Sequence record: OL362041.1
Reading direction: 5' to 3' (one strand)
DNA: 64,000 nucleotides
DNA from: Escherichia phage vB_Eco_OMNI12
The translations under genes and the position numbers were made by a program. Shown here one piece after another: positions 13,581 through 22,109 of the stretch; within the stretch, counting starts at the first letter, position 1, and each line of letters starts with the position of its first letter. Under the pieces are notes generated by a model that was not told where the DNA came from, did no database searches, and saw nothing but the letters and a program-made list of their open reading frames with translations.

Positions 13581-13866
13581 TTTTAAGTATTGTAAAACAT
13601 TCGATGCAATCGTTTATACTGTCGAATCATCTTTTTAGTAGGACGAGAATAGGTTCCTACGCAAGTTGTCATATGAGGGTCCGTAGAATGTCCTTTAATA
13701 AAAAGTTTCCAAACCTTACCGCCATTTAACTTTTCAGTATAAACCAATTCGGTTTTCATTAAAATGTCCTGTCAGAAAAAGAATTTTGAGTTTTTTCAAG
13801 TATTGTAAAACATTTGATGCAATCGCTTATATTGCCGAATCTTTTGGTCAGAAAAAGAAATTTGAG
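13581..13866. repeat. diverged direct repeats around two adjacent genes
   Basis: About 53-bp repeat at 13581-13634 and 13793-13845 (about 90 percent identity); 20-bp repeat gtcagaaaaagaa(t/a)tttgag at 13771-13790 and 13847-13866. Confidence 0.8.
13583..13759 (-). CDS. small ORF (58 aa) sharing its C-terminal 15 residues with upstream gene
   Basis: Hand-translated: MKTELVYTEKLNGG...IRQYKRLHRMFYNT; not in ORF track (under 60 aa). Confidence 0.4.
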   Translation of the reverse strand: MKTELVYTEKLNGGKVWKLFIKGHSTDPHMTTCVGTYSRPTKKMIRQYKRLHRMFYNT

Positions 13867-14299
13867 TTTCAAGCCATTCAATGTACTCTGCGGCAGCTTG
13901 CATCAGGTTACCTTCATAGCCATCGTTATTTTCTTGCGCAGCTAATTTAGCTAATGCGTATGAAATACGTTCACCTTGAAAAGCGGCTTTAGGCTTCTGA
14001 ACATCTTGGCTAGTTCTCTCTACAACTTCTTCAATTTCACCATTTTCAACGGATTCAGTATTCCACAAACACCAGTATGTAATTGGCTTATCATAGATGT
14101 TAATAATCTTTCCGTCGGAAAGTTCAATTTCAATAATTCCAGTATCAGGTTCTATATCATCTTCACATTCTTTTACAAGTTCACGAACTTTAAAGACAGT
14201 ACCTGCACTAAGTTCCGGCCAGTAATTACATAGCCCTGTATCAACACGATTAATTCTAAACCACTTATCTACTGTAATCATGTCCCATCTCCATATCAA
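13796..14299 (-). CDS. hypothetical protein (position of T4 pin/49.x genes)
   Basis: 167 aa; ends IRQYKRLHQMFYNT. Confidence 0.55.
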   Translation of the reverse strand: MIWRWDMITVDKWFRINRVDTGLCNYWPELSAGTVFKVRELVKECEDDIEPDTGIIEIELSDGKIINIYDKPITYWCLWNTESVENGEIEEVVERTSQDVQKPKAAFQGERISYALAKLAAQENNDGYEGNLMQAAAEYIEWLETQISFSDQKIRQYKRLHQMFYNT

Positions 14300-14403
14300 T
14301 TAAGTCATTTATCGTTGGTTCATTATATACTGTTTCTTCATCAGTGTAAACCGGTTCTTCCGGCTCTGGCTCTACAGTTTCCCATCTAGCCGCCCACCAA
14401 GGT

Positions 14404-14613
14404 TTAACCCCGAAGCTTATTAAGTTCTTCATAATCAATCCAGGATTCTAATCCTGATGGCAAATCAGATTCAATTTCCCAAAGAAGCTCTTCAATTTTC
14501 TGAAGACGATCTAGTTCTTCGGCTGGAATAGTAACCATTGACGGAGCTCGTGATACATTAATATCGTAAATCATATTTACCCCAGTTTGACCATGCAATC
14601 GCCGTATTTCCAC
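14404..14613 (-). CDS. hypothetical protein
   Basis: ORF track 69 aa. Confidence 0.4.
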   Translation of the reverse strand: MEIRRLHGQTGVNMIYDINVSRAPSMVTIPAEELDRLQKIEELLWEIESDLPSGLESWIDYEELNKLRG

Positions 14614-14792
14614 TTAGAAATAGACTTTTCGCCATTAGAATAATAAACTTCGAGTTTAGCACGATTATTTTTAATTTGAATAACCTTGGCTGTCATCAAA
14701 GTTCCATACCCATAATAAACTGCAACTTCATCACCTACATATACCGCGCTTCCGCGATAATCATGAATATAGTCAGTTCCTTCGAGCATCAT
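14577..14792 (-). CDS. hypothetical protein
   Basis: ORF track 71 aa. Confidence 0.45.
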   Translation of the reverse strand: MMLEGTDYIHDYRGSAVYVGDEVAVYYGYGTLMTAKVIQIKNNRAKLEVYYSNGEKSISKWKYGDCMVKLG

Positions 14793-15298: not shown

Positions 15299-15688
15299 TT
15301 AATCCAAAATATTATTAGGCATTGGTTGAACACTCACAAGTTCTTTAAAGAACTCAGTAGAGTCAGGCAATTTAACCATTTCCGGAGCATGCTTACTGAA
15401 TTTATGTTTACATTGACGGCATTTATATTCAAGCTCTGGTTTACGCCAGTTAATCAACTGAACTTGTTCAGTACCGCATTCAGGGCAATTAGGAACGTTT
15501 TTAGAAGCTCTTTCACGTCGTTCAACCATAGCCATAATAGCATCCCATGCTGGAGGTTTAAAATCTAAATCGTCGCAGCCGTGAATCTTTCCACGCATTT
15601 CCATATCATCTTCCTCACCAGCCATAATAATTTTAATTAAACTGGAATTACTTGAAGCTGCAATGTCTTCTAATAAACGCTTTTTCAT
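15299..15688 (-). CDS. zinc-ribbon protein
   Basis: 129 aa; CPECG...CRQCKH four-Cys ribbon. Confidence 0.5.
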
Positions 15689-16614
15689 TTCAATACCTCA
15701 ATAGCATTACGTAAACCATTTGCTTTTGCATTAAGAGCTTTTAACAATTTGGTGTGTTCTGCAATTTGGGCTTCAACTTCAATCAAACGGGCATTGAGAT
15801 ATTCACGTTCTTCACTCAGATTATCAACCTTTTCTACTTTAGGCTCTTTTACAACTGTCTTATATGTATTAGGGTTCTTCAGTTTAATTAGAATGCGTGA
15901 ACTGTATAACATTGAACCATTATCTTCGGTTTCGTCATACATTTCCACTACGTCCATAATTTTTAACATCATGCGGAGTTTATAAGACAACGAACGAATA
16001 GTTTTGTTGTGCTTATTAATTTCTTTAGCTGTCATGGTGCCAAGATTACGTGAGTAATAATAAGGAACCTGGATATTAATTAATACTGATGAACCACCTG
16101 GCTTGTGTGTTACTTCATCAGCAATAACCCAGTCCTTAACATGAACTGTATTTGTACGGTCATCGCCCGCGGTAAATAGTTTGCGAGCATGCTTAAAAAG
16201 CATATTCACTTGGTCATTGAATTGACAAGCAAATTTATCAGCAAATTTAGTTTCAGGAATGGTAGAAAACCAATCAGCCAAATGAGTCTTTTTAACATCA
16301 TTAACAATAGTAAATTCAACCAAATCGGTTATAGATGTCTCAGATTTAATGAAGCTCGGCTTCATAAAGTTTTTAATGTTCTCATGAGCTACAGTAGAAG
16401 ATAACATACGAGAACGTTTAAACCATTCAAGCAAATTGCCTAACGAATGAGAATACGCATTTTGTGTATCTTTACAAATATGGTTTTCCCATCCAATATA
16501 GTCTAAAAAATCACGAAGAATATTATTGATTACTGCTCTGTGTCCTATCTGATAATTACGATGTTTAGTAATAAGACTGTCAAAATAATCAATATAATGT
16601 TTACGAGTTTTCAT
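15685..16614 (-). CDS. hypothetical protein with C-terminal coiled coil (paralog family member 1)
   Basis: 309 aa; N-terminus MKTRKHYIDY; C-terminal heptad-rich 40 aa. Confidence 0.55.
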   Translation of the reverse strand: MKTRKHYIDYFDSLITKHRNYQIGHRAVINNILRDFLDYIGWENHICKDTQNAYSHSLGNLLEWFKRSRMLSSTVAHENIKNFMKPSFIKSETSITDLVEFTIVNDVKKTHLADWFSTIPETKFADKFACQFNDQVNMLFKHARKLFTAGDDRTNTVHVKDWVIADEVTHKPGGSSVLINIQVPYYYSRNLGTMTAKEINKHNKTIRSLSYKLRMMLKIMDVVEMYDETEDNGSMLYSSRILIKLKNPNTYKTVVKEPKVEKVDNLSEEREYLNARLIEVEAQIAEHTKLLKALNAKANGLRNAIEVLK

Positions 16615-16666
16615 GTTCTTCTCACTTGGTTAATGATTTATACTCCGAGCCATCCTTGGCTTTAAA

Positions 16667-17668
16667 TTACTTAATTAACTGTAAAGCTTGTTCCAGACGA
16701 TCCAGGCGATTAACAGATTCTTCCCAAATCCTTTTAGACTGCTCATATTCTTTCTGTGCTTTATTAGAAATTTCTAGAACTTCTTTATAAGCTTTTTCTA
16801 ATGCAATAACTTCTGGACGAATTTCTACCGGTTCAGGTGAATCGTCAAGACATTCCATTAGTTCCTCAAGGGTGGTTTCTTCTTTAGGAGTATTCACAAT
16901 TTCATCACATTTTTGCTGGTAAATTTCTTTATCAGTCGGTGAGTACGCACACTTTACTTCACGAAGACTAACTACAATTTTATATCCTTCCCAGCCGCAT
17001 ATATTCTTAAAAGGATAAGTATGAATATTTTCTACTGTTTCCATACAAAGTAATGCGGTCTCTAATTGACGAGTTATAGTGCTAGCAATTGAGAAAAATT
17101 TATTAATGTTCTTTTGGTTAGTTTCTGGTGTAAAAAATCCATAATTCACAAAAAAGCTTACTTTATTTTTATCAAGTTCATATTCTTTTATGATAATCAT
17201 ATCAGAAGCCAAAGGATGAATTTGACGATAATCGCCATAACATAATTTAGAAGCTGATTTTAGAATCTGTCCTTTGAAAAGTCTGAAATTACTAATCCAA
17301 CGACGAGTAAAAATATTCTCAGGGTCTTCTTTATTATTAAGATGATAAGAATTAACATCACCGAACCAATTATATCCTACTACATCTTTGGTTCGTTTAA
17401 TTTCTTTCCCAAAATTACCAAGAATATCCCGATTAACCAAATATGAAAGAAGACGAGACTCTTTAAAGGTTTTCTTGATAACATCTTTATCTACACGGCT
17501 AGAAATTTTACGAATTTCATGAATAAATTTAGTAGAAGAAACAATACTTGCATCAACACTATTGAGCCATTGATTGATAATAGAAAGAACGCTATTTTGG
17601 CCAAACATCGGTATAGCTTTATCATCAATAACGCTATTGAATGATTTGATATATTCGTTACGAGTCAT
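16667..17668 (-). CDS. hypothetical protein with C-terminal coiled coil (family member 2)
   Basis: Start moved to Met 18 (ATG 17668-17666, GAGGAG upstream) because ORF-track start lies in promoter; 333 aa. Confidence 0.55.
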   Translation of the reverse strand: MTRNEYIKSFNSVIDDKAIPMFGQNSVLSIINQWLNSVDASIVSSTKFIHEIRKISSRVDKDVIKKTFKESRLLSYLVNRDILGNFGKEIKRTKDVVGYNWFGDVNSYHLNNKEDPENIFTRRWISNFRLFKGQILKSASKLCYGDYRQIHPLASDMIIIKEYELDKNKVSFFVNYGFFTPETNQKNINKFFSIASTITRQLETALLCMETVENIHTYPFKNICGWEGYKIVVSLREVKCAYSPTDKEIYQQKCDEIVNTPKEETTLEELMECLDDSPEPVEIRPEVIALEKAYKEVLEISNKAQKEYEQSKRIWEESVNRLDRLEQALQLIK

Positions 17669-17690
17669 AATAATCTCCTCAGTAGAAAGT

Positions 17691-17725
17691 AAGAACATTA
17701 TACCACATCCTTGTGGCAAAGTAAA
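17691..17725 (-). promoter_or_regulatory. T4-type early promoter
   Basis: -35 TTTACT (17720-17725), 17-nt spacer, -10 TATAAT (17697-17702). Confidence 0.6.
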
Positions 17726-18751
17726 CTAGTTCAGTGCATTTAGTGCATTGTTCAGTTTAGAACGTTGCTTTGTCAGATTTTGAACCCTTGACTGAGCTTG
17801 TTCTAACGCCTTTTCAACTTCTAGCATTTCATTGGTCGCTTTAACGAGTTCATCATCTACTGCCTTAAGAGACTTTTCAATCGCATCAGCGTGCCATTTT
17901 TCTACAGGTTTAAAATTTGAATTTTCAGTAGGAAGAAAACTCACTTTATTAAGTTTACATGCATCTATGTTACTTGAACTGTACATCCAACATTTAGGAT
18001 CGTTTGATAAGTAATTGGATAAATTTAAATTTAAGGTATCTTGCACTTCCTGCTTTTTCTCTTGAACAATTTCATCCTTTCTCAAAAATTCATATTTAAA
18101 TGAAACGATCATATCAAGTTCATATGTTGTTGTATGTTCCCAATTTCGCTCAAAACGAGGTAAAATCTTAGATTGAACAGCGGCAACAACATCCATATAC
18201 TTAAATGCTTCTGTCAACTGTGATTTAAGGCATTCACAAATTGAAAGAGAATTTTTTGTATTAGGTTTAAAGCTAATTCGTGCAGTTCTGTTATTTTCTT
18301 TTAATGGTCTTACTTCCATCTGAAGAGTATAACCATCAAATTTCAGGTTCTTTAAGTTAATATCAGAACCTTTTAATCGACTAGCCGTCGACAAAATTTG
18401 CTTTAATTGTCTACGGAACAGAGCAATAAATCTCCATTCAATACGATAATGATTTGGATTAAAAAATCCAGATGATAAATTAACCTTACTCTGACCAACG
18501 CCTTGAACAAATAGAGGATTTTTATAATCAATAGTTTTACCGAAATCGGTGAGCTGCTCACGAGCAGTCATTTGTGTAATATACCCCGCTTTACTAAAAT
18601 GACGTAACCATTCACTGCTATTCATATATTTAAAGTGAATATCACGATTAACTTTATCAGGGTCTAAATTATTTTGGCACAAAAATGTCATAACATCACG
18701 AGTATAGCTGGCATTACGAACCATATCTTCAATTTGAGAACGAGTTTTCAT
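17726..18751 (-). CDS. hypothetical protein with C-terminal coiled coil (family member 3)
   Basis: 341 aa; N-terminus MKTRSQIEDM similar to member 1. Confidence 0.55.
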   Translation of the reverse strand: MKTRSQIEDMVRNASYTRDVMTFLCQNNLDPDKVNRDIHFKYMNSSEWLRHFSKAGYITQMTAREQLTDFGKTIDYKNPLFVQGVGQSKVNLSSGFFNPNHYRIEWRFIALFRRQLKQILSTASRLKGSDINLKNLKFDGYTLQMEVRPLKENNRTARISFKPNTKNSLSICECLKSQLTEAFKYMDVVAAVQSKILPRFERNWEHTTTYELDMIVSFKYEFLRKDEIVQEKKQEVQDTLNLNLSNYLSNDPKCWMYSSSNIDACKLNKVSFLPTENSNFKPVEKWHADAIEKSLKAVDDELVKATNEMLEVEKALEQAQSRVQNLTKQRSKLNNALNALN

Positions 18752-18759
18752 AGTGTTCC

Positions 18760-19647
18760 TTAAGATTTAAGTAAATCAACAATTTTAATTAACTTTTCAC
18801 GCTCAGATTTAGCTTTACTACTCAGTCCAGATAGTCTGAAAATTTCATCATCATATTGCTGAATAGAAATATTCAGCTCTTCAATCTGCTTATTAAAATA
18901 ATCAATTTGTTCAGAATGTTTTTCGTTACTACGAACTGGTACAGGTTTTGTAGGTAATTTAGATGAACTGGATTCATCCTGGCGATAAATTAAAATACAA
19001 CTTGAACCAATTGGACATTTTGCACCAGATGAATATTCTAATGTTCCAGCTTCTTTTAAAACTTCAAAAGCTAAACAGAGATGATGCCCCATATTGACAT
19101 AATCTGTAGAGCGAGCTCTGACGTAATAATCATCTCCGCGAATACTAAATTTAAAGCATTTAAGGTCTTCTGTATTATTGGTCTTAAAAATCATTTGTTT
19201 ATCTAGACCCTTAGCTAATCGAGCGCCTAATGCTAATAATCGTCGTTGATTTTCCCACAAATCCTCAATCATTTGATCGAATGATAATTTTGGCATTAGT
19301 CGACCATAAAGGTCATATCCTTTATTATAATTACGAAGGATTTCACTCGCGTTAATACGAGACAACGCTCCAATTTTATTAAGGGCTTTCATGATGCGAT
19401 TAGATAAACCCATTCCAGACCCGTTTGTTCGTTGTAAATGTTTTTCTAATCCAAACCCAATATCAACTTTAAATTTATCTAAAATTTCAGCATGAACGTC
19501 TCTGTCAATAACATTCAAATCCAAAGTTGGGTTAAATCTATGAAAAAATTTATCTGGCTCTCCACGACGAAGTACAGTCCATTCATTCAATTTTTTATTA
19601 ACTAAAGATTTAATTACTGCATTGACATTATTAATTACTACTGACAT
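18760..19647 (-). CDS. hypothetical protein with C-terminal coiled coil (family member 4)
   Basis: Start at Met 13 (ATG 19647-19645, GAGGAA upstream); 295 aa. Confidence 0.5.
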   Translation of the reverse strand: MSVVINNVNAVIKSLVNKKLNEWTVLRRGEPDKFFHRFNPTLDLNVIDRDVHAEILDKFKVDIGFGLEKHLQRTNGSGMGLSNRIMKALNKIGALSRINASEILRNYNKGYDLYGRLMPKLSFDQMIEDLWENQRRLLALGARLAKGLDKQMIFKTNNTEDLKCFKFSIRGDDYYVRARSTDYVNMGHHLCLAFEVLKEAGTLEYSSGAKCPIGSSCILIYRQDESSSSKLPTKPVPVRSNEKHSEQIDYFNKQIEELNISIQQYDDEIFRLSGLSSKAKSEREKLIKIVDLLKS

Positions 19648-19654
19648 ATTTTCC

Positions 19655-20062
19655 TCACTCAATTTCAATTTTACTAAATACACAGAATAAGATAGAACAG
19701 ACTATATAAGCACCACACACAGATTGAACTAATACCATTCCAAAGAACCAAACAATATTATCAAACAATGTCTGTTTTACGTCGAAAGGACGTAAACTTA
19801 CAGTAATATTATCGCCTTTTTCTATTGATGAATACATCTCTGGTGAAATATATTCGCTAAATCTATAACCGTCTTTGAGTTCATATACGGCAATAAACGA
19901 TAAACTAGACCCCTTTCCTTGAGTTCCTGTAAGGGTATTAACTACAGTAACATCATAATCTTTATAATGCATATAATCATTAATAGCATAATAACCATAT
20001 GCAACTACTACACATAAACAGCATATCAATAAATTCAATCTTTTAATTATCAACTGTTTCAT
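19655..20062 (-). CDS. membrane protein
   Basis: 135 aa; hydrophobic helices at both ends. Confidence 0.5.
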   Translation of the reverse strand: MKQLIIKRLNLLICCLCVVVAYGYYAINDYMHYKDYDVTVVNTLTGTQGKGSSLSFIAVYELKDGYRFSEYISPEMYSSIEKGDNITVSLRPFDVKQTLFDNIVWFFGMVLVQSVCGAYIVCSILFCVFSKIEIE

Positions 20063-20085
20063 AATAATCTCAATTAAAAGGGCTT

Positions 20086-20116
20086 AGAACCATTATACCA
20101 TCCTTGGTATAAAGCG
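20086..20116 (-). promoter_or_regulatory. middle (MotA-type) promoter candidate
   Basis: Minus strand CGCTTTA (MotA-box-like, 20110-20116), 12-nt gap, extended -10 TGGTATAAT (20092-20100). Confidence 0.45.
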
Positions 20117-20117
20117 G

Positions 20118-20645
20118 TTATGCGAGTACCGTCTTTAACCGTTCTTCAAACTTCCGAAGAGTATTCTGGCGTTCAGCTCTTTGCTTTTTGTAAGTTTCAA
20201 TACGCTCTGAAATGAGAGTGTATCGTTCATTTACTGATTCTTTCATAAAATCAGGAATTTCACGAGAAGCTTTAATCTCGTCAAATTTATCAATAACAGC
20301 TTGCTCTTCAGCAATTAAGTTATCATACATCAAAATATCTTTCTTGATGAACTCAATATCTTCTTGAGTTACACGAGATAATTTAGATGCTTTATCCTTT
20401 TTGTACTGTTCGTTAGTATCACGAGACCAGTGTAATGTACGATTTTTATTCGTATTCTTATAAATTTCTACAATACCAATCTCATCAATAATAACGATCC
20501 AATTCCAACGGGATTTGTAAATTTGTCCTCCATCAACCGTGATTTCACCTCCGATTGAGATGTCATTAAAGAACTTGCTTTGTGCTTCAGATTTAAATTT
20601 ACCATCGTTGTAATTTACCAGGTTGAAAATATCTTTAGCGTTCAT
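20118..20645 (-). CDS. hypothetical protein
   Basis: Start moved to Met 21 (ATG 20645-20643, GGAGG upstream); 175 aa. Confidence 0.5.
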   Translation of the reverse strand: MNAKDIFNLVNYNDGKFKSEAQSKFFNDISIGGEITVDGGQIYKSRWNWIVIIDEIGIVEIYKNTNKNRTLHWSRDTNEQYKKDKASKLSRVTQEDIEFIKKDILMYDNLIAEEQAVIDKFDEIKASREIPDFMKESVNERYTLISERIETYKKQRAERQNTLRKFEERLKTVLA

Positions 20646-20667
20646 TTTGTGTTCCTCCGTAGTTGAT

Positions 20668-20702
20668 AGTTGTATAGTACCACAGAGGAACGGTCTTGTA
20701 AA
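20668..20702 (-). promoter_or_regulatory. T4-type early promoter
   Basis: -35 TTTACA (20697-20702), 17-nt spacer, -10 TACTAT (20674-20679). Confidence 0.6.
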
Positions 20703-20705
20703 CAA

Positions 20706-21020
20706 CTAAAAGAAACTTCTTTCACAATTTTTTCCACTGAACCACGCACTCACTGCTTTCTTAGTCTCAGGAGCAGTGTTATCCATAAACCATTCAAAGG
20801 CAGCCTTTTTATGATTCTGGAGGGCTTCTCGGGCTTTAATCTGCTCACGGTCTATTAACACTAACATATGAGCCTTTCTTGTCACCAAGGGCTTCTTATG
20901 ATTTTTTGAATATTCCCAATCATTTGTCCAGCGCATCGTTGTTGCGAACTGAAATACTGCTTCTTTAATTTTAGTTTCGTAAATTTCACGAGCCTTTGAG
21001 TATAACATCATTACCTCCAT
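20706..21020 (-). CDS. hypothetical protein
   Basis: ORF track 104 aa. Confidence 0.45.
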   Translation of the reverse strand: MEVMMLYSKAREIYETKIKEAVFQFATTMRWTNDWEYSKNHKKPLVTRKAHMLVLIDREQIKAREALQNHKKAAFEWFMDNTAPETKKAVSAWFSGKNCERSFF

Positions 21021-21110
21021 TTACCAGTTTAATTCTAGTCATCTTTTTGATGGCAGTCCATATAATCTATTTCTGAACTGCCTTTTTGTCTTAGAAGGCC
21101 TCTTATGAAT

Positions 21111-22079
21111 TTATTTCAGAAGAGTAACCTCAGCGATTTCTTGCCAACCGTTTTTGTCGGTCATAATAAAGTCAGCAAGATAAAGTGCAGTACGCAGTGA
21201 AACATTGCGTAAACGATTAACATTGACTTTCATCCATGATAATGCTTTATAAGTTTCTTCATCAGAAAGACCGCGCTTTTGCATCATGTCGGTTGAAAGA
21301 ATAACATCTTCAACCCTGACCATAATTTCTTCATTAGTGTGAACACCCAAATCTAAATAAACTGAGCGGGACACTAATGCTTGTAAATGTGGAGCAAGTT
21401 TAGTACCACGGTCTAATTCGCGGTCAATGTCAACGTTTGTGATAAAAACAATCGTTCCTTTAAATTCAAACTCACGCTCAATGCCTTTTTCTTCTAAGTA
21501 AGAAGATGCAGTGCTCCAGCAGACTTTACGGGTCTCTCCAGTGTCCAGAGCAGCTTTCAGAAGATTAAGAATGTCCATATCAGAGAAAACATCCACATCA
21601 TCAATCAAAAGGACAGAATTCTCTTCACGATTATTCCAAAGTTGTTCATAAAGACCGATACCGGAGATTTTACCGTTAATGCTTTTATATTCAATGTATC
21701 CATTATCATTTGCTTTATTCAAAGCTTTATCTAAAGAATACGTTTTACCAATACCCGCCGCACCAGAGATAATTAATGAACGAATGTTTCCGTTAATAAT
21801 ACCATTCGTCATCATTCCCATAACATTAAATCTTTTATTAATGCGGGTTTTCATATCTTCATATGATTCTTTAACTTCTTCAACTTTTACACCATCATAT
21901 GAAATGTCTGATTTGTAAACCCAAACACCGCGACGCTTACCGTCAATTTCAACAAAAACTTTACCATCTCCTTGTGCATCTACCGGAGCATTATCTGGGA
22001 ACCATTCACCTAAGAGCTCAAAAGTTCCAGAGATTTCTTTACCGAAGTAGATACCCTTATTGATAGTTACAGTTTTCAT
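21111..22079 (-). CDS. P-loop ATPase (AAA+-like)
   Basis: Walker A SGAAGIGKT, Walker B VLLIDDVD, sensor-like TIVFITN; start at Met 7 with GGAG upstream. Confidence 0.6.
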   Translation of the reverse strand: MKTVTINKGIYFGKEISGTFELLGEWFPDNAPVDAQGDGKVFVEIDGKRRGVWVYKSDISYDGVKVEEVKESYEDMKTRINKRFNVMGMMTNGIINGNIRSLIISGAAGIGKTYSLDKALNKANDNGYIEYKSINGKISGIGLYEQLWNNREENSVLLIDDVDVFSDMDILNLLKAALDTGETRKVCWSTASSYLEEKGIEREFEFKGTIVFITNVDIDRELDRGTKLAPHLQALVSRSVYLDLGVHTNEEIMVRVEDVILSTDMMQKRGLSDEETYKALSWMKVNVNRLRNVSLRTALYLADFIMTDKNGWQEIAEVTLLK

Positions 22080-22109
22080 TTTATTCTCCAATCTCACATT
22101 TGTTTTGAT

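Follow-up and report, generated by a model that had tools for sequence, protein, structure and literature searches.

Four adjacent genes of Escherichia phage vB_Eco_OMNI12, corresponding to nrdC.3, nrdC.4, nrdC.5, and nrdC.6 of related phages, are best explained as ancient tandem paralogs that make up a phage-specific family of modular counter-defence proteins, a reading to which we assign a probability of roughly 0.6. They lie in a stretch of 64,000 nucleotides (nt) of sequence record OL362041.1, which was analysed as a whole and is called the window below. Because the paralogs are so diverged, databases hold the four as three unrelated families. The genes and the function of NrdC.5 were already known; what may be new is the joining of the three families into one and the three counter-defence candidates that follow from it. 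The present analysis itself shows paralogy, a common architecture, synteny, conserved C-terminal tails, and a locus at which genes are often lost or recombined.

The source phage is T4-like and belongs to Tequatrovirus, and gene names follow the annotated relative LR990704. A sequence-only reading of the window had described four consecutive genes of similar size, and all four were found as minus-strand open reading frames (ORFs) where it had placed them:

15685 to 16614, minus strand: nrdC.3 homolog, paralog A, ORF of 309 amino acids (aa); phrog_1435, E = 5.7e-116
16667 to 17668, minus strand: nrdC.4 homolog, paralog B, ORF of 333 aa; phrog_1435, E = 1.5e-167; homologs carry PF26897
17726 to 18751, minus strand: nrdC.5 homolog, paralog C, ORF of 341 aa; Pfam DUF7235, E = 3e-113; phrog_2351
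18760 to 19647, minus strand: nrdC.6 homolog, paralog D, ORF of 295 aa; phrog_2257, E = 1.4e-151; homologs carry PF26899

The genes within the proposed span of 15685 to 19683 thus stand, but its upper end does not, as 19683 is an upstream GTG belonging to a longer, mechanically called ORF, and orthologs begin at the ATG at 19647. Two ambiguous starts were settled by Shine-Dalgarno sequences and by orthologs of other genera, the start ATG of nrdC.4 being preceded by GAGGAG and that of nrdC.6 by GAGGAA. The MKTR start attributed to two of the proteins belongs to NrdC.3 and NrdC.5, both encoded by the identical 12-nt sequence ATGAAAACTCGT, and the N-terminus of NrdC.4 is MTR. The array is tightly packed, with intergenic gaps of 52, 57, and 8 nt, and the adjacent genes are probably co-expressed. 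Its flanks encode NrdD, endonuclease VII, Pin, and NrdC. The 4-kb stretch holding the four genes is matched by 656 phage records, nearly all from Tequatrovirus, with a best DNA identity of 96.5%.

By BLASTP, only NrdC.3 and NrdC.4 are linked to each other (25% identity over 231 aa, E = 4e-6). The databases follow the same division: PHROGs places NrdC.3 and NrdC.4 in phrog_1435 and gives NrdC.5 and NrdC.6 a family each, and Pfam splits the four among PF26897, PF23882 (DUF7235), and PF26899. Each of the four matches its own family (PF26897/phrog_1435, PF26899/phrog_2257, or phrog_2351) clearly and over the full length. NrdC.5 matches the DUF7235 profile at 378.7 bits against a cutoff of 30 and over residues 1–341, and NrdC.3, NrdC.4, and NrdC.6 have no direct match to that profile. 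Whereas the databases keep three unrelated families, the present analysis joins them in one superfamily, together with fold relatives whose sequences are unrecognisable. For this purpose, profiles were built with divergent orthologs from Gaprivervirus and Mosigvirus genomes and compared by hhalign against reversed-sequence controls, which keep the same composition and periodicity. NrdC.3 and NrdC.4 were joined with a probability of 97.5% (E = 7e-12, 210 columns), and the NrdC.3/.4 profile matched NrdC.5 at 90% (E = 1.6e-6) over 277 collinear columns, or at E = 2.5e-9 in global mode. Removal of the last 60 residues left a match of 72% (E = 3.5e-5, 230 columns), as compared to E = 0.2–0.35 for the reversed controls of this pair and E = 0.15–0.9 over all pairwise family comparisons. 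A merged NrdC.3/.4/.5 profile matched NrdC.6 at 89% (E = 2.1e-6, 210 collinear columns; 97% and E = 6.6e-10 in global mode) and, without the tail, at 53% (E = 1.4e-4, 69 columns), with reversed controls at E = 0.02–0.67 and tail-free controls at E = 0.2–0.9.

The independent hhalign alignments, including every weak one with NrdC.6, superpose the same motif, and the shared blocks could be read from a 16-sequence alignment. Motif 1 is [FL]-K-x-[SG]-x-[LI]-[ST]...A...L-x-N-[FY]-G-K, and motif 2, which lies on a long central helix, is L-[LK]-x-x-[AS]-[RK]-L-x-x-G. Further shared blocks are a strand ([IV]-N-[LF]-K), a helix (L..AL..M..V), the beginning of the tail (P-V...[KW]-[HY]-[AS]-[ED]-x-I), and a common tail end; at the N-terminus, TR-x-E-[YFL]-I is common to the NrdC.3, NrdC.4, and NrdC.5 lineages across genera. 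The two motifs were placed as follows, motif 1 by hhalign superposition and alignment throughout:

16366 to 16425, minus strand: motif 1 of NrdC.3 (WFKRSRMLSSTVAHENIKNF)
17402 to 17470, minus strand: motif 1 of NrdC.4 (TFKESRLLSYLVNRDILGNFGKE)
18536 to 18601, minus strand: motif 1 of NrdC.5 (HFSKAGYITQMTAREQLTDFGK)
19318 to 19392, minus strand: motif 1 of NrdC.6 (MKALNKIGALSRINASEILRNYNKG)
16153 to 16200, minus strand: motif 2 of NrdC.3 (LFKHARKLFTAGDDRT), on its long central helix, from profile alignments
17222 to 17266, minus strand: motif 2 of NrdC.4 (ILKSASKLCYGDYRQ), in AlphaFold2 helix 119–142 and the residues just after it
18353 to 18397, minus strand: motif 2 of NrdC.5 (ILSTASRLKGSDINL), from profile alignments
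19195 to 19239, minus strand: motif 2 of NrdC.6 (LLALGARLAKGLDKQ), within AlphaFold2 helices 134–150

Similarity beyond a low-complexity coiled coil, the point on which the sequence-only reading had staked its proposal of a paralog family, is therefore present, but outside the NrdC.3–NrdC.4 pair it is seen only by profiles. The family itself holds up with graded strength: the case is strong for NrdC.3 and NrdC.4 and good for NrdC.5, and for NrdC.6 it is moderate, but profile, fold neighbours, element order, and synteny converge. We are accordingly confident that all four genes are homologous, NrdC.6 being the least secure member. DNA repeats among the four genes were absent beyond the 12-nt start and a single 21-nt microhomology; recent duplication or gene conversion was therefore rejected, and the duplications are ancient. 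The neighbouring NrdC.8 (175 aa), which has a terminal helix rich in K, E, and R, was considered as a fifth member and rejected, as its hhalign matches (E = 0.06–0.3) were no better than reversed controls and its heptad p was 0.19.

Each of the four proteins ends in a helical, heptad-like tail:

15688 to 15816, minus strand: NrdC.3 tail, aa 267–309; heptad score p = 0.03; conserved between alleles
16670 to 16816, minus strand: NrdC.4 tail, aa 285–333, ending RLEQALQLIK; single long AlphaFold2 helix 285–332
17729 to 17908, minus strand: NrdC.5 tail, aa 282–341, ending KLNNALNALN; strongest heptad signal; conserved across genera
18763 to 18939, minus strand: NrdC.6 tail, aa 237–295, ending KLIKIVDLLKS; AlphaFold2 helices 241–271 and 277–294; heptad p = 0.02; block identity 0.63–0.76

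In the AlphaFold2 models, the C-terminus of NrdC.4 is one 48-residue helix that follows a disordered stretch, and the tail of NrdC.6 forms its two helices after a disordered linker. By a crude heptad score set against 200 shuffles, which is not a calibrated predictor, the best window sits in the tail of NrdC.5 (0 of 200 shuffles reach the score), NrdC.3 (0.03), and NrdC.6 (0.02). The C-terminal coiled coils that had been proposed from the letters thus survive as helical, heptad-like tails in all four proteins, and "coiled coil" itself remains a prediction, the NrdC.4 tail not being that protein's top heptad window. In every family the tail ranks among the most conserved blocks: the last block of NrdC.4 has a mean pairwise identity of 0.89 versus about 0.5 for the body, and NrdC.3 tails are 80–100% identical between alleles whose central bodies share about 45%. 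The C-termini of all four fit L-x-x-A/I-[LIV]-x-[LV]-[LI]-K/N, a pattern that among the 70 window ORFs of 100 aa or more is present in exactly these 4 and that does not recur elsewhere in 17,099 residues; it was defined post hoc from the four proteins and so shows specificity rather than a probability.

AlphaFold2 models were made from family alignments for NrdC.4 (predicted local distance difference test, pLDDT, 82) and NrdC.6 (pLDDT 77). Compared element by element, the two models agree in both the order and the approximate positions of their parts, namely six N-terminal helices, the motif-2 helix (119–142 in NrdC.4 and 123–144 in NrdC.6), a β-hairpin (158–174 and 165–178), a helix (185–208 and 186–199), a second hairpin (212–235 and 204–221), a disordered linker, and the tail. 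Foldseek searches of BFVD led both models to the same distant entries from T4-like phages, at 11–17% identity: A0A0A0PZG4 of Pectobacterium phage PM2 (E = 1.4e-7 with the NrdC.4 model and 3.9e-7 with the NrdC.6 model), A0A7G3KGN9 of Enterobacter phage IME523 (1e-7 and 9.6e-7), and E5E4A2 of Acinetobacter phage Acj61 (1.1e-5 and 1.6e-4). The NrdC.4 model also matched proteins of about 300–370 aa from T4-like phages of Erwinia, Serratia, Klebsiella, and Yersinia. Acj61, a member of Twarogvirinae, has two such fold relatives, encoded by adjacent genes of 330 and 304 aa between nrdC and nrdC.10, and both retain the long terminal helix. An attempt to use these proteins (p120/p121) as a sequence bridge to the family failed, as no similarity in sequence to the T4 families could be detected and fold and synteny are the only links. 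A separate tandem duplicate in Acj61, p076/p077 (L011 14027–16321), consists of two adjacent 372-aa genes annotated as mutual copies and is unrelated to the nrdC.x array.

The arrangement is kept well beyond the genus. The order nrdC.8,.6,.5, (.4), (.3) recurs in Gaprivervirus and Mosigvirus, where three array genes are present, and arrays of two to four such genes fill the same slot after nrdC, an Acinetobacter phage included. NrdC.5 diverges fastest between genera (24–28% identity, versus 32–50% for NrdC.6, 49% for NrdC.4, and 77% for NrdC.3). An exhaustive HMMER search of 1.84 billion representative proteins returned just 14 clusters at 50% identity for NrdC.5, a very narrow distribution; bacterial or distant homologs were absent from it, and all full-length clusters were T-even-like. 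Relative to T4 the order of identity differs, with NrdC.4 at 97.6%, NrdC.6 at 96.6%, NrdC.5 at 91.0%, and NrdC.3 (compared with the T4 counterpart at L010 5057–5980) at only 61.6%. The last value reflects two NrdC.3 allele classes within Tequatrovirus, one at 90% identity or more in about 357 records and the other at about 61–63% in further records, T4 included; in phage 121/2022-2B, NrdC.5 is 98.8% identical and NrdC.3 61.3%. Between alleles the first 75 residues are 85–100% conserved, and divergence is confined to residues about 76–270 (about 45% identity). The central segment of the vB_Eco_OMNI12 protein resembles the Mosigvirus version, a resemblance that points to exchange between genera, and the allele of this phage is a mosaic.

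The locus is also rearranged in nature. ACG-C40 and Pinarejo carry out-of-frame deletion remnants, fPS-65 has an NrdC.5::NrdC.3 fusion, and NrdC.6 of Shigella phage Sf25 (378 aa) contains an in-frame tandem duplication of residues 176–258, that is, half of the central module and the start of the tail. In Salmonella phage Manna, nrdC.5 and most of nrdC.4 are deleted, and Manna_094 (L005 2715–3752) is an in-frame hybrid of 345 aa that joins NrdC.6 residues 1 to about 268 to NrdC.4 residues about 256–333. The junction of this hybrid coincides with the microhomology in the window:

16898 to 16918 with 18841 to 18861, unstranded: 21-nt microhomology, 81% identity, encoding QQxxDEI in NrdC.4 and NrdC.6

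Records with high identity in the tail only were considered as swaps to new N-terminal domains and rejected, as ACG-C40 and Pinarejo are deletion remnants and Manna is an NrdC.6::NrdC.4 fusion. In a 173-aa protein (P0230), an unrelated 118-residue N-terminus precedes a tail that matches one variant of the NrdC.5 tail exactly; that N-terminus is not encoded in the 64-kb window and was only partly matched, by gapped alignment, in two phages, and P0230 could be a real domain swap or an artefact of assembly or ORF calling. Because of the natural deletions, fusions, hybrid, and duplication, nrdC.3–nrdC.6 are regarded as dispensable, recombination-prone accessory genes.

The suggestion that the family is diversifying is borne out by the low cross-genus identity of NrdC.5, the two NrdC.3 alleles within one genus, the frequent deletions, the in-frame hybrid, and the internal duplication. 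The accompanying suggestion of a variable N-terminal domain divides by protein: it fits NrdC.5 and NrdC.6, in which the first 55–80 residues are the most divergent between genera, but not NrdC.3, in which the first 75 residues are conserved and the body varies.

The functional part of our reading starts from NrdC.5. A T4 deletion mutant is unable to infect ECOR17, deletion of dsr1 in the host restores infection, cloned dsr1 protects MG1655 against the mutant, and T4 nrdC.5 supplied in trans restores plating of the mutant on dsr1-bearing cells, with no mechanism stated (Srikant et al., eLife 2022, PMC9391042). Dsr1 is a SIR2 NADase whose sensor, common to Avs7, recognises the phage major capsid protein (Nature 2026, PMC13581612). 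Neutralisation of Dsr1 was shown for T4 NrdC.5 only (PMC9391042), and the vB_Eco_OMNI12 protein is its ortholog by 91% identity, a full-length Pfam match, and the same genomic position; NrdC.3, NrdC.4, and NrdC.6 share its architecture and, by profile, its ancestry, but fall below BLAST-level similarity. T6 gene 49.2, near nrdC.x, inhibits OLD defence (PMC13096335), and the genomic region therefore carries further counter-defence genes. The literature that we searched yielded neither a mechanism for NrdC.5 nor more recent studies of NrdC.5 or DUF7235, and nothing on what nrdC.3, nrdC.4, or nrdC.6 do. As diverged paralogs of the proven NrdC.5, these three genes are nonetheless cheaply testable anti-defence candidates, although for each of them an anti-defence role, which would follow from kinship with NrdC.5, is given somewhat less than an even chance.

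In this reading, all four proteins have one layout: a helical N-terminal domain with motif 1; a central module in which the long motif-2 helix is followed by a β-hairpin, a helix, and another β-hairpin; a flexible linker; and a conserved amphipathic heptad-like C-terminal helix. Under the proposed mechanism, each would inhibit, stoichiometrically, a different anti-phage immunity protein of the host, with target specificity set by the variable body, in which within-genus and between-genus variation is seen as concentrated, and the conserved tail would drive self-association and thereby give avidity for oligomeric defence proteins. The target of NrdC.5 would be Dsr1, presumably bound directly. 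Because Dsr1 is triggered by a capsid protein made late, NrdC.5 made early could occupy it before that protein appears. In T4, nrdC.5 is described as an early gene, and by analogy nrdC.3, nrdC.4, and nrdC.6 are likely to be early as well.

The closest known systems are informative mainly by analogy. DSAD1, an inhibitor of DSR2 from SPbeta-type phages, blocks a SIR2 NADase with a sensor for a structural protein of the phage (PMC10973363, PMC10981675, PMC11087589), and its likeness to NrdC.5 is functional only; DSR2 and Dsr1 differ in both sensor and trigger (tail tube versus major capsid protein). The T-even anti-defence genes Gp49.2 (anti-OLD), TifA, Dmd, and AdfA (anti-toxin island) are likewise small or medium in size, dispensable in laboratory hosts, and clustered, and they are gained, lost, or amplified by microhomology recombination, much as the nrdC locus shows deletions, a hybrid, and a duplication. 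However, those genes are unrelated to one another in sequence, whereas nrdC.3–nrdC.6 form a paralog array. The tail terminator or gpU-like α+β sandwich fold (λ gpU 3fz2, T5 p142 8bcp, and gene transfer agent 6tba) is also listed among the closest known systems. An HK97-like major capsid fold, by which a family member could serve as a capsid mimic or decoy for the Dsr1 sensor, was considered and rejected.

Several observations weigh against the reading of these genes as a family of counter-defence paralogs. Compared directly, NrdC.6 matches NrdC.3/.4 or NrdC.5 weakly (10–31%, E = 5e-4 to 3e-3, 57–117 columns), and its link appears strong only with the merged profile made for this analysis. The best heptad window of NrdC.4 lies at 185–212, outside a tail that is helical but less canonical, and tail-only profile comparisons (E = 3e-4 to 0.1) rise barely above their controls (0.03–0.6), so the tails alone could be convergent. 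Foldseek root-mean-square deviations were 12–30 Å, the models being flexible and multi-domain, and T4 entries for NrdC.3, NrdC.4, and NrdC.5 were absent among the significant BFVD matches of the NrdC.6 model. With a divergence of 9% from T4 NrdC.5, activity of the vB_Eco_OMNI12 protein against a given Dsr1 is not guaranteed, and NrdC.5 could act indirectly on Dsr1.

The last point leads to the alternative that has survived best, that the genes do form a family, but one that serves mainly for something other than the inhibition of defence proteins. The proteins would then be early host-takeover or regulatory factors (scaffolds, or nucleic-acid- or protein-binding modulators), and rescue by NrdC.5 on Dsr1 hosts would come about indirectly, e.g., through NAD+ economy or through the timing or amount of capsid protein. 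The published evidence for NrdC.5 is indeed genetic rescue only, indirect routes around Dsr1 exist in that NARP pathways rebuild NAD+, and the N-domain of NrdC.3 has faint, sub-threshold matches (E = 0.0016; 17.7 bits versus a cutoff of 279) to the helical domain at the N-terminus of XerD. However, Pfam, NCBIfam, and PDB sequence searches with the four proteins gave DUF-type or sub-threshold matches only and no enzymatic or DNA-binding family at threshold (PDB matches to designed helical repeat proteins were set aside as helical-composition artefacts). The genes are also often lost in nature without loss of viability, their fast and mosaic evolution is typical of arms-race genes rather than of core takeover functions, and the neighbourhood carries another direct defence inhibitor. 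We thus consider this alternative unlikely.

A variant gives the tail a different part, as a common handle by which all four proteins would dock onto a single partner (a host hub, or one another in a hetero-oligomer) while the bodies recruit different targets. In every family conservation is higher in the tail than in the body, and a terminal motif is common to all four; both points would fit such an adaptor, as would the probable co-expression of the adjacent genes and the persistence of the Manna hybrid of NrdC.6 body and NrdC.4 tail, which suggests that tails are exchangeable. The terminal pattern was, however, recognised only after the fact, and each family's tail is distinct and conserved within its own lineage, which fits family-specific homo-oligomers at least as well. 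Because many genomes carry just two or three of the genes, an obligate complex of four parts is excluded, and the variant as a whole has little to commend it. Equally improbable is the explanation that these are unrelated accessory ORFs of similar size that gained coiled-coil-like C-termini independently, the family being a helical or low-complexity artefact: the nearly empty BLASTP comparison, the three families kept by PHROGs and Pfam, the marginal tail-only profile similarity, and the lack of a DNA-level repeat are all as it would have them, but it is contradicted by the tail-free profile matches (the poorer at 1.4e-4, against controls of 0.2–0.9), by profile alignments collinear over 210–290 columns, by two models that agree in element order and distant structural neighbours, and by a tandem arrangement that is syntenic across genera.

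Among the features that surround the array, a candidate early-type promoter lies in the nrdC.5–nrdC.4 gap; it is a consensus match, from which a promoter function may be supposed:

17697 to 17725, minus strand: candidate early-type promoter; TTTACT, a 17-nt spacer, and TGGTATAAT; consensus scan 10/12 with TG

The stop of nrdC.3 overlaps the start of nrdC.2 in the tetranucleotide ATGA, which suggests translational coupling. The NrdC.2 homolog (15299 to 15688, minus strand, 129 aa) has a zinc-ribbon signature (Zn_ribbon_8, E = 6.6e-6), and its length varies from 73 to 129 aa among relatives. The NrdC.10 homolog (21111 to 22082, minus strand, 323 aa) has sub-threshold P-loop matches, both to nSTAND3, AAA_16, AAA_14, and AAA_22 (E = 1e-4 to 3e-4) and to clamp-loader PHROGs; it may be an uncharacterised nucleoside triphosphatase in the same accessory block. 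Just downstream of pin, a 58-aa ORF (13583 to 13759, minus strand) has the C-terminus ...IRQYKRLHRMFYNT, nearly that of Pin (...IRQYKRLHQMFYNT), and its 3' end has 47 of 58 nt in common with that of pin (13796 to 13853); the end of pin appears to have been partly duplicated. The gp49.1 homolog (14268 to 14420, minus strand) is 90% identical to the phage NR1 protein, and it is separated from nrdC by two further small ORFs, of 69 and 71 aa. NR1-type gp49.2, of the family reported as the OLD inhibitor in T6, had no tblastn match in the 64-kb window, in which the region concerned is 14404 to 14792.

Many GenBank records label NrdC.1–NrdC.11, these four included, as "thioredoxin" (15685 to 22082 and relatives). 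A thioredoxin or glutaredoxin identity was rejected for the four proteins, which have no CxxC and no thioredoxin family in Pfam or NCBIfam scans, and the NrdC.4 and NrdC.6 models do not have the thioredoxin fold. The label appears to be name propagation from "nrdC.x", and the reading of the genes as a paralog family corrects this widespread mis-annotation of nrdC.3–nrdC.6.

T4 is the best-studied phage, and about half its genes are without known function; the nrdC.x block is a classic case of this gap. The combination of a variable body with a conserved tail suggests a structural logic, one that the natural body/tail hybrid already probes. Beyond the counter-defence family, a tentative and rather doubtful extension would unite NrdC.3–NrdC.6 with their fold relatives, which come from T4-like phages of Pectobacterium, Enterobacter, Erwinia, Serratia, Klebsiella, Yersinia, and Acinetobacter, in an ancient, Straboviridae-wide superfamily of modular immune antagonists. 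In such a superfamily the tail would be an oligomerisation or docking handle, and the fast-evolving, recombining body would be retargeted to different bacterial sensors (e.g., Dsr1/Avs7-type capsid sensors, oligomeric NADase, and STAND systems). If this is true, one tandem array would be a panel of inhibitors that sets host range. The family is in any case widened by its fold relatives with unrecognisable sequences in phages of many hosts, and this bears on predicting the host range of therapeutic phages.

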